Made by a program: the position numbers and the translations under genes. The notes under the pieces are model-generated. The model made no database searches and was not told the DNA's origin. It worked only from the letters and a program-made list of their open reading frames with translations. DNA of 64,000 bases from a virus (Duplodnaviria; Caudoviricetes). This document shows, piece after piece, positions 2,674 through 62,306 of the stretch. The stretch lies in the IMG/VR virus record IMGVR_UViG_3300042507_004106; one strand, written 5' to 3'. How positions within the stretch are numbered: the first letter of the stretch is position 1; every line of letters begins with the position of its first letter.

Positions 2674-2712
2674 ATTTTAGCATAAAAAAAGGAGGGGATC
2701 AACCCTCCTTTT
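2674..2712 (-). terminator. Intrinsic terminator with an overlapping sigma70-like promoter
   Basis: Hairpin aaaaggaggg-gatcaa-ccctcctttt plus U-tract on the minus strand; TTGATC (2697-2702) lies 17 bp from TAAAAT (2674-2679). Confidence 0.75.
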
Positions 2713-2715
2713 GAT

Positions 2716-2799
2716 TTACTTATAAATCCACTGGATATACAGTGATAATAAAGTAATAAAAGTAGCAGACGCAACTGTAATTTGTGCGATGATTAACAT
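2716..2799 (-). CDS. 27 aa hydrophobic micropeptide MLIIAQITVASATFITLLSLYIQWIYK
   Basis: Manual translation; start overlaps the previous stop (TGATG); single-TM-like composition. Confidence 0.55.
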   Translation of the reverse strand: MLIIAQITVASATFITLLSLYIQWIYK

Positions 2800-2894
2800 C
2801 ACTTTGCCCCTGCGTTTACAAGCAGTGCTTGATGACGACGATTCTCTTTCTGCTTTTGCTCTTTGATGAGTTGAAGCACATTGAGTTTTTTCAT
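2799..2894 (-). CDS. 31 aa basic micropeptide MKKLNVLQLIKEQKQKENRRHQALLVNAGAK
   Basis: Manual translation; TGATG coupling to both neighbours. Confidence 0.55.
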   Translation of the reverse strand: MKKLNVLQLIKEQKQKENRRHQALLVNAGAK

Positions 2895-3031
2895 CACTTA
2901 TGACCCTCCTTTACAAACTTAACACCACGATAGGTTTCGTTGTATTGTTGGGGTTGTTGCATCATTTGCTGTTGATACTCAAGACGCTTTTGAGTATCAT
3001 ACTCTACGCCTCTGTATACGACTTTAGACAT
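2894..3031 (-). CDS. DUF4278-like small protein (45 aa)
   Basis: MSKVVYRGVEYDTQKRLEYQQQMMQQPQQYNETYRGVKFVKEGHK with two YRGV motifs; AAGGAG Shine-Dalgarno upstream. Confidence 0.75.
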   Translation of the reverse strand: MSKVVYRGVEYDTQKRLEYQQQMMQQPQQYNETYRGVKFVKEGHK

Positions 3032-3064
3032 TAGGTTTTCTCCTTAGTTTTTTAAGTTAAAGAG

Positions 3065-3163
3065 CGTTCCTTCAGTCGGCGTTTGCGTTCGCTATTTGCG
3101 AATAGCGAATGAACGATCCGTTCCGCGTCGGCTTACTTCCGTCAGAGTTTTCTCTGATGAACG
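3065..3163 (-). ncRNA. Tandem glutamine-riboswitch-like aptamers (glnA / Downstream-peptide classes)
   Basis: Aptamer 1 (3163-3119): CGUUCA-UCAGAG-AAAA-CUCUGA-CGGAAGUAAG...GGAACG. Aptamer 2 (3115-3065): CGUUCA-UUCGCUAUU-CGCA-AAUAGCGAA-CGCAAACGCCGACUGAAGGAACG. Both have the CGUUC/GGAACG P1 and sit in the 5' leader of a DUF4278 gene. Confidence 0.78.
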
Positions 3164-3170
3164 TAAGGTC

Positions 3171-3199
3171 ATTATAGACCTTTTCAAGGTATATATCAA
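3171..3199 (-). promoter_or_regulatory. Sigma70-type promoter for the riboswitch operon
   Basis: TTGATA (3194-3199) - 17 bp - TATAAT (3171-3176) on the minus strand, about 7 nt before aptamer 1. Confidence 0.75.
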
Positions 3200-3200
3200 T

Positions 3201-3230
3201 ATAAAATTGTATAATCTGTTACAATTTTAT
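3201..3230. promoter_or_regulatory. NtcA-type box GTA-N8-TAC inside an 11-bp perfect palindrome
   Basis: ataaaattGTA-taatctgt-TACaattttat; core at 3209-3222, immediately upstream of the -35 box. Confidence 0.6.
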
Positions 3231-3283
3231 AAAATCTTAAGAGTCAAAAAAATTGCCGGGATTTTTTCCCAGCAATTTGTAAA

Positions 3284-3652
3284 CTATTTTCTCTTTTTCT
3301 TTTCGGGAGATTTATAACCCCAGAGTTTTGGATTGACTCTCCCATAACCAAAGTCAATACTCTTTAGATTCCCACGAAACTTATCCCAATACATATCAAA
3401 CAGTTTGATTCTTCCGCCACGAGTAAGGTCAAAACAAATCTTATCATCAATCATATACTTAATAATATAGGCATCATTGGGTGCATCTTTCGTGCAGACT
3501 TCAGCATAGGTCCCACCTTCAATCAGAATCTCACAACCGTAGCGTGACTTACAAGTTTCCTTTTCTGCGGGTGTCCAAGAATCCATATGCTTTTCTTTAT
3601 TTTGTGCTTTTTCAATTACATCACCAAGTTGACTCACGAACGACCTCCCCAC
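3284..3652 (-). CDS. Conserved cyanophage hypothetical protein
   Basis: 122 aa ORF in a co-oriented, overlapping gene run; the true start may be a downstream Met. Confidence 0.65.
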   Translation of the reverse strand: MGRSFVSQLGDVIEKAQNKEKHMDSWTPAEKETCKSRYGCEILIEGGTYAEVCTKDAPNDAYIIKYMIDDKICFDLTRGGRIKLFDMYWDKFRGNLKSIDFGYGRVNPKLWGYKSPEKKKRK

Positions 3653-39702: not shown

Positions 39703-41248
39703 TCAACCGATTGACGGTGCCGTTAAAGCAACTTCTTGAGTAGAAGCAGCAGCAAGGTCAAGTGGGAAGTTGTGCTTCCATTTTGGACTATATCTTCACC
39801 ATACTCTTTATGAGGTTAGGTGTCGGACGCTAATGGTGTATTACATAGGGCGCTCCCTAAACCACCTAGTCTCTGAACCTTCCCTAGAAGCGTCTAGGGC
39901 TTGGATGCTGATTGCCCGTTAGGGTTTCCAGCAGTTCATCCGAAGTTTACCTTGTCTTTTCAGGCAAGGGCGCCCACAAATCGAGCGTTGCGTTCATGCC
40001 GTTTTTGTTACCGTAAGAACTCTTTATTTCTTACTTCTTACTGTCGCCAGTAAGACCAGACTATCTCTTCATCCGTTCTGGATGCTGGGCATTCGTGGGT
40101 AGATTATTGTTGGAACTCACTACCTAGTCGTTAGACCTGCCGAAGAACCTATGTCCTCTTCGGATTGGTACGGGATTGTCTACTTGAGAGTTTCCCCGTT
40201 TAACCCAGTTTCGTCAAGGAATATTCCTATTCCAGGGTGACTACATTTAAGAAATCACTTCCATTCCCAGTCCTGCACGGTTAAGTACATCAGCCCAAGT
40301 GTTGATTACCTTGCCCTGACTATCAACGATACTTTGATTAAAGTTGAAGCCATTCAAATTGAAGGCCATCGTGGAAACACCAAGAGCGGTGAACCAAATA
40401 CCCACGACGGGCCAGGCTGCTAAGAAGAAGTGAAGTGAACGGGAGTTATTGAATGAAGCGTATTGGAAGATTAGACGACCAAAGTAACCGTGAGCAGCAA
40501 TTATATTGTATGTTTCCTCCTCCTGACCGAACTTGTAACCATAGTTCTGTGACTCATTCTCAGTGGTTTCACGAACCAGCGAGGAAGTAACCAGAGAACC
40601 GTGCATAGCACTGAACAGAGAACCACCGAAGACACCAGCAACTCCAAGCATGTGGAAGGGGTGCATCAGGATGTTGTGCTCTGCCTGGAACACAAGCATG
40701 TAGTTAAAAGTACCAGAGATACCCAGAGGCATTGCATCAGAGAAAGAACCTTGACCGAAAGGATAGACCAGGAACACTGCAGAAGCAGCAGCAACAGGTG
40801 CAGAGTATGCAACACAGATCCAAGGACGCATACCCAGGCGGTAGGAAAGTTCCCACTCACGACCCATGTAGGCGTAGATACCAATCAGGAAGTGGAACAC
40901 AACCAGTTGGAAAGGACCACCGTTGTAAAGCCACTCATCTAGGGAAGCAGCTTCCCAGATAGGATAGAAGTGAAGACCAATGGCGTTGCTTGAAGGAATC
41001 ACAGCACCAGAGATGATGTTGTTTCCGTACATGAGTGAACCAGCAACGGGTTCACGGATACCATCAATGTCCACAGGAGGTGCGGCAATGAAGGCAACGA
41101 TGAAACAAATGGTAGCAGCAAGCAGGCAGGGGATCATCAGAACGCCAAACCAACCCACATAGAGGCGATTGTCAGTCGAAGTAACCCAGTTGCAGAACTG
41201 TTCCCAAGTATTTGATTGTGATTTTTGACGTGAAATTGTAGCAGTCAT
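39703..41248 (-). CDS. psbA: Photosystem II D1 protein in three exons: join(40254..41248, 39984..39999, 39703..39774), 360 aa after splicing
   Basis: 995+16+72 = 1083 nt, reading ...[35 protein letters not shown], which restores the canonical D1 C-terminus. Confidence 0.95.
39775..39983 (-). mobile_element. Group I intron 2 of psbA (209 nt, no ORF)
   Basis: Exon ends in U and intron ends in G. P1 exon CGCU pairs with GGCG (U.G); P10 exon CACAA pairs with UUGUG. Core elements GAACUGCUGGAA (P), AAUCAGCAUCC (Q), CAGAGACUA (R), GAAGAUAUAGUCC (S). Confidence 0.93.
39984..39999 (-). other. psbA: 16-nt psbA micro-exon (G CAT GAA CGC AAC GCT)
   Basis: Supplies the last base of the Met codon plus H-E-R-N-A, which is missing between exons 1 and 3. 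Confidence 0.92.
40000..40253 (-). mobile_element. Group I intron 1 of psbA (254 nt, no ORF)
   Basis: P1 exon GUGAU pairs with GUCAC (U.G); P10 exon GCAU pairs with AUGU. AAACGGGGAAAC (P), AAUCCCGUACC (Q), UAACGACUAG (R), GAAGAGAUAGUCU (S); P9 CUUACUG-GCGA-CAGUAAG; terminal G. Confidence 0.9.
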
Positions 41249-41267
41249 TTTTTCGTAAAAGGGTAAG

Positions 41268-41362
41268 TAAAAGTCCAGGGGGAACTGGATAATACGTTAT
41301 TCCCACAGCACCCTCCACTGTGGGTATGAGAGACGTAATTTATACTCCCCATAGGTCTCGGT
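41268..41362 (-). ncRNA. Structured psbA 5' leader, PhotoRC-II-like motif
   Basis: Three hairpins: GAGAC...GUCUC, CCCACAG-UGGAGGGUG-CUGUGGG, UCCAG-UUCCCC-CUGGA. Family name from recall, not from a search. Confidence 0.55.
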
Positions 41363-41416
41363 TAGTGAGAGTTTACAATGTTACGAATTATTAGGAATCC
41401 GTAACATTTGTTTACC

Positions 41417-59413: not shown

Positions 59414-59546
59414 GGTCTTTACATGCACGCCAAGTTATTTTTTTTAACTAGGTAATAACTAAATCCTAGGCGGGGTAACCCCATCCGCACCACCAATCCT
59501 TTGAAGAGAGATTGGAAACTCAATGGGTCTTTTGACTCCACCACCT
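59414..59546 (-). ncRNA. Structured RNA, wcaG-RNA-like
   Basis: Hairpins CCAAUC/GAUUGG, GCGG-AU-GGGG-UUA-CCCCGC, AGUUAUU/AAUAACU; GGUGGUG repeated; ends GGCGUGCAUG; lies directly upstream of gmd. Family name from recall. Confidence 0.55.
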
Positions 59547-60372: not shown

Positions 60373-60448
60373 TCGGGGTATTCAGATTTGAACTGAAATT
60401 ATTCCTGCTCCCAAAGCAGGTGCCATGACCAAGTTAGGCGATACCCCG
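60373..60448 (-). tRNA. tRNA-Pro(UGG)
   Basis: CGGGGTA/TACCCCG acceptor; CCTGC-TTTGGGA-GCAGG anticodon arm; TTCAAAT T-loop. Confidence 0.88.
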
Positions 60449-60569
60449 TTTCACCGTTATTTAGTTCGGTGTATAAGCATTATACCTATAATCGGCGGAA
60501 TAATCAAGCCCCCTCCACAAATACCAATCCAGACTGGGCTTGCCGCAAGTGTCTCTACAATGTGAAAAA

Positions 60570-60767
60570 TCATCTTCCTCTCCAATTTTTATATTCAAAG
60601 TAAAAGTATTGGTCTACCTCATCTAAACCCGTTACAGGGGCATTTACACCCCACTCAGACCATTCTATGCAGAACTGTTTGATATCGTGGTTATGTGTAA
60701 TAGAGTGTCCATGCATTCTCACAAAGGCAGACATTGCGAATTGATATTTCTTATTGTGGGTAGGCAT
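60570..60767 (-). CDS. Hypothetical protein
   Basis: 65 aa ORF. Confidence 0.55.
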   Translation of the reverse strand: MPTHNKKYQFAMSAFVRMHGHSITHNHDIKQFCIEWSEWGVNAPVTGLDEVDQYFYFEYKNWRGR

Positions 60768-60945
60768 TGTGAAGTCCCCAATTTAAGAAAACCGCTATGA
60801 GACCAAAAATAATGACTGCGTTGATAATTGTATTACTCATCTTCTTCGTCCTCATATGTAGATGGTTCTTCAAATAACTCATCTATCTTTTGTTGAAAAA
60901 CTCTTTGTTGCAATTCTTGAAAATCTTCTTCTGTAATCATCCCCA

Positions 60946-61152
60946 TCAGTTTAATGTAATTTTAAGAAACGGAAGTAAGGGCGGAATAACTCCTATCAAC
61001 CTCAAAAGTCCCTCAGCAAATAAAGCAAGAACCACCCAACCGACGCACATACTAATGATAGAAGCATTACGGTTGTGTCGTCGTATTGCAGCATCGATCA
61101 TCTCCTGCACTTCTGTACGAGTCACATAATCATCATCAAAAGGTTCCATCAT
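60946..61152 (-). CDS. Small membrane protein
   Basis: 68 aa; AIRRHNRNASIIS followed by a TM helix. Confidence 0.62.
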   Translation of the reverse strand: MMEPFDDDYVTRTEVQEMIDAAIRRHNRNASIISMCVGWVVLALFAEGLLRLIGVIPPLLPFLKITLN

Positions 61153-61298
61153 TTTTCATCACCAAGAAACTTTGCAAGAGGATCTCTACGGGTTTTGACA
61201 ATTTCAACTGCTCTCTTGTAGAACATATTATTGGTGTTCCCAGAGGCTTCAAATGTTGCCTTGATCTTCACCCAATTATCGTAGGTGTGCTGATCCAT
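61149..61298 (-). CDS. Small hypothetical protein (49 aa, MDQHTYDNWVKIKATFEASGNTNNMFY...)
   Basis: Manual translation; ATGA overlap with the next gene. Confidence 0.6.
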   Translation of the reverse strand: MDQHTYDNWVKIKATFEASGNTNNMFYKRAVEIVKTRRDPLAKFLGDEK

Positions 61299-61410
61299 AA
61301 GGTTTAGGTTGAATACTACTAGTTATACTAGTGAGTATTTCTACTATGTCAAGTTTGTGTTGATACAAAAATATAGATTAAGAAAATCTAAAACTTTGTA
61401 ATATTTGTAA

Positions 61411-61496
61411 CAGAGAGAGAGGGATTCGAACCCCCGGAGGCTATTAACCTCAAACGCTTTCAAGGCGTCCACTTTAAACCACTCAGTCATCTCTCC
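61411..61496 (-). tRNA. tRNA-Ser(UGA)
   Basis: GGAGAGA acceptor, CT-TGA-AA anticodon loop, long variable arm GAGG...CCTC, GTTCGAATC. Confidence 0.9.
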
Positions 61497-61506
61497 AAAT
61501 AAGTCC

Positions 61507-61764
61507 TCAACGGACTTCAAAATCTAGGCGTCTTACTTTACGTTGGCGTCTTGCTTCCTGGAAGGCAAGGTCTTCGTTAGTAAGAACACCAGATTTTGTT
61601 TTATTATGATAAGAGTTTAGCATAACAATCTGAGATAAGTCAACTGCTGAAATCTTATCTCCGCGAATTGTCGCCATATTTGAACAACCGCAAGTCACAG
61701 TTTTCGTAGGATGCCCTTCTATCTCCTTACCACAGGAGCGGCATCTGATTCTTAAATTTTCCAT
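61507..61764 (-). CDS. Zn-ribbon hypothetical protein
   Basis: CRSC...CGC.N. Confidence 0.6.
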   Translation of the reverse strand: MENLRIRCRSCGKEIEGHPTKTVTCGCSNMATIRGDKISAVDLSQIVMLNSYHNKTKSGVLTNEDLAFQEARRQRKVRRLDFEVR

Positions 61765-61770
61765 TGTAAT

Positions 61771-62205
61771 TCATTCAGTAAAAGATCTTAACATCCAAAT
61801 AAACTTTCCATGAGACTCATTTAAATCATCAACAAGATTTGTAGTGCCTCTAGATTTTTGTACTTCTGCTTCTTCGGCAACTTGACCTAGAAGAGATACA
61901 ATTTGTTGATTACATTTAATCAAATCATTAACCATACCCATTGCATCTAAAGAACTATTTGCTTCTTCAACTTGAGAAACTTCAGTAATTCTTGTAAGAG
62001 TGCTAACTGGTTTAATCTTCAAATACCTCATATGTTCGGTGAGGCGGTCAATTTCTTCAAACATTGTTTCATATTGTTCGCCAAAAACTTTATGAAATTG
62101 ATAAAACTCAGAACCAACTACATTCCAATGATAAACCCAAGTCTTTTGAAAGAGAACAAAAAGACTTGCCTGAGTATCAGAGAGTAACTTATATAATTTT
62201 TCCAT
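61771..62205 (-). CDS. dps: Dps/ferritin-like protein
   Basis: KTWVYHWNVVG.EF..FH..F.EQY...D...E ferroxidase motif; W.L.S end; TATAAATA upstream. Confidence 0.88.
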   Translation of the reverse strand: MEKLYKLLSDTQASLFVLFQKTWVYHWNVVGSEFYQFHKVFGEQYETMFEEIDRLTEHMRYLKIKPVSTLTRITEVSQVEEANSSLDAMGMVNDLIKCNQQIVSLLGQVAEEAEVQKSRGTTNLVDDLNESHGKFIWMLRSFTE

Positions 62206-62233
62206 TATACCAGTTTTTTAGGTATTTATAAAG

Positions 62234-62306
62234 TGGGCGAAGAGGGATTCGAACCCCCGGCATCCTCCGTGTAAAAGAGACGCTACTACCGCTGAGCTAT
62301 TCGCCC
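62234..62306 (-). tRNA. tRNA-Val(UAC)
   Basis: GGGCGAA/TTCGCCC acceptor; TT-TAC-AC loop; GTTCGAATC. Confidence 0.9.

Follow-up and report, generated by a model that had tools for sequence, protein, structure and literature searches.

A probable nested double-core glutamine riboswitch in the leader of a cyanophage DUF4278-family gene

Two short units of the form CGUUC...GGAACG, set 3 nt apart on the minus strand at 3163-3065, lie 5' of a 45-aa DUF4278-like ORF in the 64,000-nt stretch of viral DNA analyzed here (the window). They raise the question of whether a phage carries two glutamine aptamers one after the other or a single RNA built from both units. An earlier note, made from the sequence alone, had taken them for back-to-back aptamers of two classes, the first of the glnA type and the second closer to the Downstream-peptide type. 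The sequence details of that note were all found at the coordinates it had given, and its general view, that of a phage-borne RNA related to glutamine riboswitches in the leader of a DUF4278-family gene, was supported. We propose, with a probability of about 0.7, that the 99-nt leader forms one composite glutamine-sensing domain, a nested double core, and not two serial aptamers.

The window has the content of an uncultured T4-like cyanophage, including PhotoRC-II, a wcaG RNA, psbA with group I introns, and tRNAs. At the DNA level, similarity was confined to Synechococcus phages and was distant there; the sequence of the window occurs in lake-water metagenomes. No second copy of the element was present in the 64-kb window. 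The two units and their parts are listed below, with the pairing partners that the comparison with relatives assigns to them.

3163-3119 (-): unit A; CGUUCA, P2a (6 bp, loop AAAA), and CGGAAGUA-AGCCGACG-C-GGAACG
3118-3116 (-): spacer GAU between units A and B
3115-3065 (-): unit B; CGUUCA, P2b (9 bp, loop CGCA), and CGCAAA-CGCCGACU-GAAG-GAACG
3159..3163 (-): 5' strand of the outer P1, the CGUUC of unit A; partner at 3069-3065, from compensatory changes in relatives
3142..3157 (-): P2a hairpin, 6 bp with an AAAA loop; three basal pairs covary (100% paired, several pair types)
3139..3141 (-): C-G-G strand of the outer core, in which G3139 forms the outer linchpin with C3064
3134..3138 (-): AAGUA, the 5' half of loop E, from unit A only; invariant in alignments A1 and A3
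3126..3133 (-): 5' strand of P3, AGCCGACG; pairs with 3081-3074 in a bridging, covarying helix
3119..3124 (-): 5' strand of the inner P1, contributed by the GGAACG of unit A; pairs with 3115-3111, with CAACG/CGUUG co-changes in relatives
3116..3118 (-): the GAU linker, which serves as the loop of the inner P1 hairpin and supplies G3118, the inner linchpin partner of C3085
3111..3115 (-): 3' strand of the inner P1, formed by the CGUUC of unit B; the inner hairpin is present in the minimum-free-energy (MFE) fold too
3088..3109 (-): P2b hairpin, 9 bp with a CGCA loop; basal pairs covary
3082..3087 (-): C-G-C-AAA strand of the inner core, with C3085 as its linchpin base
3074..3081 (-): 3' strand of P3, CGCCGACU; pairs with 3133-3126
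3070..3073 (-): GAAG, the 3' half of loop E, from unit B only
3065..3069 (-): 3' strand of the outer P1, the GAACG of unit B

In unit A, the AGUA strand of loop E is present and the GAA strand absent; the reverse holds in unit B, and neither unit has a P3 hairpin of its own. The tails of both units have GCCGAC in common and are complementary to each other. The supposed back-to-back aptamers are thus both incomplete, each carrying only one half of loop E. Some parts of the element vary among relatives: the first G of GAAG is an A in about one-quarter of them, and in more than half, the P2b loop is replaced by a 130-190-nt insert with a small ORF. The linker is at least 3 nt long in all but one of 185 elements.

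Whether the units represent two classes was examined with Rfam models, both at gathering thresholds and in a permissive cmscan of 501 nt (2850-3350). No glutamine family matched at the element at gathering threshold. Below its cutoff of 35 bits, RF01739 (Glutamine-I) matched unit B (3061-3117) with 33.1 bits (E=2e-5) and unit A (3119-3163) with 21.4 bits (E=0.035), and RF01704 (Glutamine-II/Downstream-peptide) gave no match at E<=10 in 2850-3350. Consequently, the Downstream-peptide-like second unit fails the direct test; unit B is in fact the better RF01739 match of the two, and the assignment to one glnA and one Downstream-peptide aptamer had to be dropped. The notion of two unlike cores survives in part: one has loop E and the other lacks it, but they are not two riboswitch classes. 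In the Synechococcus phage S-PM2, a weak RF01704 match (24.6 bits; cutoff, 33) falls on unit A instead of unit B, because unit A carries CGC in place of CGG after P2.

Set against the anatomy of the known classes, the Glutamine-I arrangement of P1, P2, CGG strand, and loop E around P3 was found only in the composite of 3163-3134 and 3081-3065. The long-range linchpin pair of this class is present as G3139:C3064; its short local P3 hairpin is absent, and the P3 strands enclose 44 nt with a second core. The Glutamine-II helix, which joins the segment that follows CGCA to the tail beyond GGAACGG, is absent as well, with no complement within 3064-3032, and the segment after CGCAAA pairs with the tail of unit A instead. 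Two complete aptamers with closing helices of their own, as a serial tandem would have, were not found, the closing helices joining the 5' strand of unit A to the 3' strand of unit B (5'A:3'B) and the 3' strand of unit A to the 5' strand of unit B (3'A:5'B).

These pairing partners come from relatives gathered by junction patterns from IMG/VR contigs and isolates, which gave 185 distinct elements, 167 of them complete. The same arrangement recurs in the Synechococcus phages S-PM2, S-CREM1, and DSL-LC02. An alignment of 56 relatives with the window left out (A3) was used to build a covariance model with the nested structure (R1), and this model gave a single match in the 64-kb window, at 3165-3062 (-), with 105.3 bits and E=1.9e-25 over model positions 1-103. 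In A3, 93% of the cells are paired under the nested structure, and the covariation score of the whole structure is 0.285, compared with 0.086 for shuffles (0 of 500 reach the observed value) and no more than 0.069 when the partners are slid. The picture was the same in an alignment of 23 sequences with the window among them. It is important to consider that the elements are phylogenetically related, and counts therefore overstate the number of independent compensatory events. An extra scan for elements with a linker C brought one addition, L315, a chance match. In bacterial contigs, the junction pattern occurred at a minimum of 120 loci; all those listed were chance matches in unrelated bacteria and are uninformative on nested forms in cyanobacteria.

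The exchange of P1 strands is apparent in elements that depart from the consensus. Read in the order 5'A, 3'A, 5'B, 3'B, the four strands are CGUUC/CAACG/CGUUG/GAACG in 26 of the 185 elements, CGUUU/CAACG/CGUUG/AAACG in 2 (L469 and L484), and CGUUG/GAACG/CGUUC/CAACG in 1 (L415). In those 29 elements, perfect helices form only as 5'A:3'B and 3'A:5'B, and local pairing would give C.C and G.G mismatches. At least 28 elements have the CAACG of unit A matched by a CGUUG in unit B, with the 5' strand of unit A being CGUUC in 26 and CGUUU in 2. The P1 strands of the window itself are all consensus, so its nested fold follows from homology and from its own linchpin bases.

The complementary tails form the bridging helix P3. 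Its first pair, adjoining loop E, is A:U in 133 elements, G:C in 23, and C:G in 5, and its eighth pair, the furthest from loop E, is U:A in 50, G:C in 34 (window included), and A:U in 6. The end pairs of P3 are of three to four types. Short forms of P3 are perfect (AGUCG/CGACU, with an AGUCA/UGACU variant), and the 8-bp form has conserved C.A and A.C mismatches at positions 3 and 6. This tail-tail helix brings the AGUA of unit A opposite the GAA of unit B and completes loop E as in the crystallized glutamine-I RNA, which reads ...CGG-AAGUA-AGGCCC...GGGCCU-GAAG-CAACG-C, with loop E at 23-GAAGUAA-29 and 50-UGAAGC-55 (PMC5393176), and has the same CGG...AGUA-AG...CU-GAAG...ACG-C layout. The chain connections run without a spacer, from GAAG to GAACG in unit B, from CGG to AAGUA in unit A, and as CGUUC-A-P2a-CG. 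Given these direct connections and a bridging P3, the swapped P1 is the sole arrangement compatible with the type I three-dimensional core.

The linchpin pairs give a further view of the same exchange. In solved structures, the long-range linchpin is formed by the two bases that directly follow ACG and GAACG (C19:G41, PMC6698751). In the present set, the outer linchpin, between the unit A base and the base after the unit B GAACG, is Watson-Crick in 165 of 167 elements, with both C:G and G:C, and the inner linchpin, which joins the first base of the linker to the base after the unit B ACG, in 142 of 167; for the side-by-side partners, the figures are only 102/167 and 104/167. In A3, the outer linchpin is paired in 100% of the sequences (56/56) and the inner one in 78.6% (G:C in 21, C:G in 20, and A:U in 2), compared with 42.9% for each side-by-side alternative. 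The base combinations are CGCG in 94 elements, CCGG in 23, GGCC in 15, and GCGC in 6; as all four consistent combinations are populated, the outer and inner linchpins vary independently. The window belongs to the GGCC class, in which G3139:C3064 and C3085:G3118 pair and the local partners would be G.G and C.C. In 25 of the 167 elements, the linker begins with A or U opposite C, and the inner linchpin, as scored, is therefore not universal. On this comparative evidence, the partners of both P1 helices, of P3, and of both linchpins are those of the nested fold. Since covariation identifies the strands as swapped, the element is read as one nested double core and not as a mixed tandem.

These observations leave little room for two independent aptamers in series, a glnA-type one followed by a Downstream-peptide-type one, each with its own P1 and each binding glutamine. 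This arrangement can draw on the window's four P1 strands, which are mutually complementary so that local pairing is possible, on the separate alignment of the units by Rfam, on the CGCA of unit B, which is as in type II RNAs, and on published descriptions of "tandem" glnA RNAs (Weinberg et al. 2010, PMC2864571). However, it would mismatch (C.C, G.G) in both local P1 helices in at least 29 relatives, and its local linchpins would fail in the window and pair no more often than given above. Moreover, it is at odds with the lack of an RF01704 match and with units that each want half of loop E and a P3 of their own, and it leaves the covarying tail-tail helix unexplained. We therefore give this arrangement almost no credence.

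A sensor with a single site, in which the outer glutamine-I core alone binds and the inner module is a P3 cap and a relic of duplication, is unlikely on other grounds. The expression platform is touched by the outer linchpin only, the inner linchpin is kept less strictly, and the inner core lacks loop E, all of which would suit such a cap. On the contrary, the inner CGUUCA, ACG strand, and GGAACG are invariant in A3 and make up the whole conserved binding core, and glutamine is bound by type II riboswitches, which have no loop E (PMC6698751). The inner linchpin also covaries between G:C and C:G in nearly equal numbers, which a passive cap does not readily account for, as an ordinary stem would do just as well.

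Nearest-neighbor energies are -24.6 kcal/mol for the nested fold, -19.8 kcal/mol for the side-by-side fold, and -38.8 kcal/mol for the MFE fold; the latter uses nonconserved pairs, and nearest-neighbor folding does not select the nested fold. Single-sequence folding recovers P2a, P2b, the inner hairpin, and the Shine-Dalgarno (SD) hairpin and misses the outer P1 and P3. The closeness of the nested and side-by-side energies would be compatible with a strand-exchange toggle, in which, for consensus-type elements like that of the window, a side-by-side OFF state forms first during transcription and glutamine drives the exchange to a nested ON state. In addition, the GAACG of unit A is transcribed before its nested partner and, in the window, is fully complementary to the CGUUC of unit A. 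Nevertheless, CAACG/CGUUG is confined to the inner helix in at least 28 relatives, which abolishes local pairing, so the toggle is not a conserved requirement, and we regard it as very unlikely.

Under the nested double-core reading, the outer core would be of the glutamine-I (glnA) type, made up of P1 3163-3159/3069-3065, P2a, the CGG strand, the composite loop E, and G3139:C3064. Its P3 (3133-3126/3081-3074) would bridge the two units and enclose an additional, circularly permuted core, in which GGAACG (3124-3119) is closed by GAU onto CGUUC (3115-3111) and joined by P2b, the CGC strand, and C3085:G3118. Because neither core has lost any of the core nucleotides of the solved type I/II structures, each may bind L-glutamine. 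Folding of the inner core would stabilize P3 and, through it, the outer core, making the response to glutamine steeper. A sharpened response is thus possible, and it would arise from the nested anatomy, unlike in the earlier note, where it was attributed to a mixed tandem. A more far-reaching proposal is that of a two-ligand cooperative sensor of cyanophage origin in which the inner core must bind first and a near-digital reading of nitrogen times the micro-operon, with the DUF4278 product and two micropeptides acting on the host glutamine synthetase or another nitrogen-control target; we hold it as a tentative and rather doubtful possibility.

Two segments behind the element form the putative expression platform.

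3058..3064 (-): CUCUUUA, the anti-SD strand; its first base, C3064, is the outer linchpin partner
3040..3046 (-): UAAGGAG with the Shine-Dalgarno sequence (AAGGAG, 3045-3040), 8 nt before the AUG at 3031

They pair as a 7-bp hairpin in the MFE and centroid folds (-4.6 kcal/mol), and the MFE fold containing this SD hairpin has a z of -3.96. The anti-SD/SD pairing is invariant within the subclass of the window and consequently lends no covariation support to the hairpin. The other subclass, with tails starting GGGA, has a different 3' platform. As no U-tract follows the element, control is probably translational, and the element is likely a translational ON switch for glutamine because the outer linchpin base C3064 also begins the SD-sequestering hairpin. 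Both glutamine riboswitch types are ON switches ahead of DUF4278 genes, and an anti-RBS segment adjoining the linchpin has been proposed for gifB (PMC6212724). By analogy, the bound outer core would capture C3064, which would weaken the CUCUUUA/UAAGGAG hairpin and free the ribosome-binding site. High host glutamine would then lead to more translation of ORF1, with ORF2 and ORF3 coupled to it via overlapping stop and start codons.

The genes and signals around the element are as follows.

3278-3250: terminator of the upstream gene
3209..3222 (-): putative NtcA-type box, GTA-N8-TAC, with its center about 51.5 nt upstream of the predicted start
3171..3199 (-): sigma-70-type promoter, TTGATA at 3199-3194, 17-nt spacer, and TATAAT at 3176-3171, 11/12 consensus
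2894..3031 (-): ORF1, 45 aa, two YRG motifs, DUF4278 family (IF17-like)
2799..2894 (-): ORF2, 31 aa, MKKLNVLQLIKEQ..., its start overlapping the ORF1 stop (TGATG)
2716..2799 (-): ORF3, 27 aa, a hydrophobic micro-protein, its start overlapping the ORF2 stop (TGATG)
2687..2712 (-): intrinsic terminator closing the unit, a 10-bp stem and then a U run

Transcription is predicted to start at about 3164-3165, 1-2 nt before the aptamer. In relatives, a -10-like hexamer ends 7-8 nt before CGUUC in 83/133, and GTA-N8-TAC is present in 87 of 133 distinct upstream regions, where shuffles predict 5.6, in most cases 51-53 nt 5' of CGUUC. As predicted from these signals, the unit is self-contained, with its own sigma-70-type promoter, NtcA-type box, sensor, micro-ORFs, and terminator. 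Contigs 90-99% alike in four metatranscriptome runs cover 2809-3180 in pieces, including the riboswitch and ORF1; these contigs represent relatives in RNA libraries and carry no start, end, or strand, and the stretches left uncovered are uninformative.

ORF1 matches PF14105 (DUF4278) only weakly, with 19.1 bits and E=0.0017 (cutoff, 25.3 bits). Of the 28 aligned homologues that lie 3' of the same RNA, 24 match this model, with a best E value of 1.8e-13, and both YRG motifs are conserved. A search of the DUF4278-like protein profile against solved structures returned nothing below E=0.2. In relatives (L099, S-CREM1, and the MNTLNLIKKQI... group), one protein combines the LNxLQLIKEQ motif of ORF2 with the YRG domain, in either order, which argues that the products of ORF1 and ORF2 are functionally linked. 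An ORF similar to the hydrophobic ORF3 lies 3' of the DUF4278 gene in three relatives (L004, L010, and L042). With the cyanobacterial IF17 and IF17-like proteins (PMC6212724), ORF1 and its homologues share a YRG-repeat DUF4278 signature behind a glutamine riboswitch. In contrast to Synechocystis IF17, ORF1 is far shorter (45 aa), lacks the C-terminal part that binds glutamine synthetase, and is followed by two coupled micro-ORFs.

Among the known RNAs, Glutamine-I (RF01739; the Synechocystis gifB leader, PMC6212724; 5DDO/5DDP) has the same CGUUC/GAACG P1, with P2 directly after CGUUCA, the same CGG strand, an AGUA/GAA loop E beside a P3 starting A-U, G-C, and a G:C linchpin. It also has the same position upstream of a DUF4278 gene, with a ribosome-binding site close behind. 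The present element differs in that its P3 strands are 45 nt apart and enclose a permuted core, that the Rfam model stays subthreshold and splits it in two, and that it is carried by a phage, with its first aptamer strand at the predicted transcript start. Glutamine-II (RF01704; 6QN3, PMC6698751) is like the inner core, without loop E and with CGCA after the hairpin, and, as in its C19:G41 pair, the inner-core C pairs with the G after GGAACG. However, the inner core lacks the A33:G42 context and the helix between the post-CGCA segment and the 3' tail, and its GGAACG precedes CGUUC. Glutamine-II RNA has been crystallized as a strand-swapped dimer (PMC6698751), and the core thus tolerates strand exchange.

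Glutamine riboswitches of cyanophages have been published previously (PMC5473149, PMC9964418, PMC9004378). The homologous 99 nt of S-CREM1 are annotated as a glnA riboswitch (PMC9964418), and unit B of S-PM2 is a row of the original 2010 glnA alignment, with unit A left in the flank. These tandem glnA and cyanophage glnA annotations concern the same sequences but describe them as serial aptamers or as a single aptamer. In the literature searched, we found no description of a bridging P3, swapped P1 helices, or swapped linchpins; the nested layout appears to be undescribed, although an earlier mention may exist. The tandem glycine riboswitch likewise has two like amino acid-binding cores in one leader, with interdomain contacts thought to shape the response. 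Its aptamers, however, are complete and sequential and dock by tertiary contacts, whereas here the secondary-structure strands themselves are interleaved.

Tandem riboswitches are a textbook case of RNA sharpening or combining signals, and, to our knowledge, the well-studied ones are all serial. Interleaved like cores, if true, would be a new way of coupling two binding sites, with the closing helices exchanged. The nested fold would also explain the odd P3-less units of "tandem" glnA RNAs and the subthreshold scores under standard models. A survey of phage riboswitches reported two (PMC5473149), and the same fold would explain such low counts in surveys. On comparative grounds, the element represents a known riboswitch class in a new architecture and is widespread in cyanophages. 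Through this module, cyanophages probably couple their gene expression to the nitrogen status of the host, a subject of current interest in the ecology of marine and lake viruses.

Over half of the related elements have a small ORF on a 130-190-nt insert in the loop of the unit B hairpin (P2b), and in many of them the loop of the unit A hairpin (P2a) is insert-bearing too. The element of the window itself is of the form without the insert ORF. One example is the following, and others are the related elements L013, L048, L076 and L097:

L003:1538-1690 (DSL-LC02), insert with small ORF

The insert ORF starts at an AUG within the hairpin's 5' strand and ends at a UGA or UAA inside ACU(G/A)AAGG; its Shine-Dalgarno sequence is likely the GGAG made from GGAACG and a GAG linker. 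Translating the insert ORF must therefore compete with sensor folding.

The hairpin UUCGCUAUU-loop-AAUAGCGAA (window 3088-3109, minus strand) is near-identical across many phages, serving as P2b in the window, S-PM2 and S-CREM1 and as P2a in the related elements L099, L060 and L073; a few compensatory variants occur (UUUGC../..GCAAA and UUCUC../..GAGAA). The bridging helix P3 (window 3126-3133 with 3074-3081, minus strand) contains two non-Watson-Crick positions. Most 8-bp forms keep C.A or A.C there, and other elements have U-A, A-U or G-C instead.

In the promoter region, the inverted repeat AAGGTC TATAAT GACCTT encloses the -10 hexamer (window 3166-3183, minus strand). The arms around the -10 vary among phages yet remain complementary (GGGT/ACCC, GTGT/ACAC, GTGC/GCAC, GAGT/ACTC), the GGTC..GACC arms alone being found in 52 of the 133 distinct upstream regions. 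This repeat may serve as the operator of a dimeric protein with diverging specificity, or it may form a DNA hairpin. A candidate NtcA-type box (window 3209-3222, minus strand) is centered near -51.5, beside a full -35 box. The usual NtcA box is centered at -41.5, whereas the candidate lies one helical turn further upstream, a placement kept in relatives.

Downstream, the motif of the 31-aa ORF2, LNVLQLIKEQ...R, was located as follows:

Window 2799-2894, minus strand
L099:2553-2681
L001:1610-1753

It forms a stand-alone ORF in the window. L099 and S-CREM1 carry it fused to the C-terminal side of the YRG domain, and members of the MNTLNLIKKQI...YRG...YRG group carry it on the N-terminal side.

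Elsewhere, the window carries the following features:

41383-41289, minus strand, PhotoRC-II RNA upstream of psbA
59419-59523, minus strand, wcaG RNA (69.6 bits)
Within 60375-62306, minus strand, three tRNA genes, one with a long variable arm

The psbA reading frame (in the region 40247-41383, minus strand) ends in a stop at 40247. After it come two separate group I intron matches (40258-40037 and 39993-39763, minus strand); they lie only 43 nt apart, which implies two putative introns and a mini-exon close to the 3' end of psbA.

In S-PM2, the weak Glutamine-II match (24.6 bits, cut-off 33) comes from unit A (L002:1516-1565) and not from unit B. It shows the I/II difference at the CG(G/C) position to be, in this family, just the polarity of the long-range linchpin pair.
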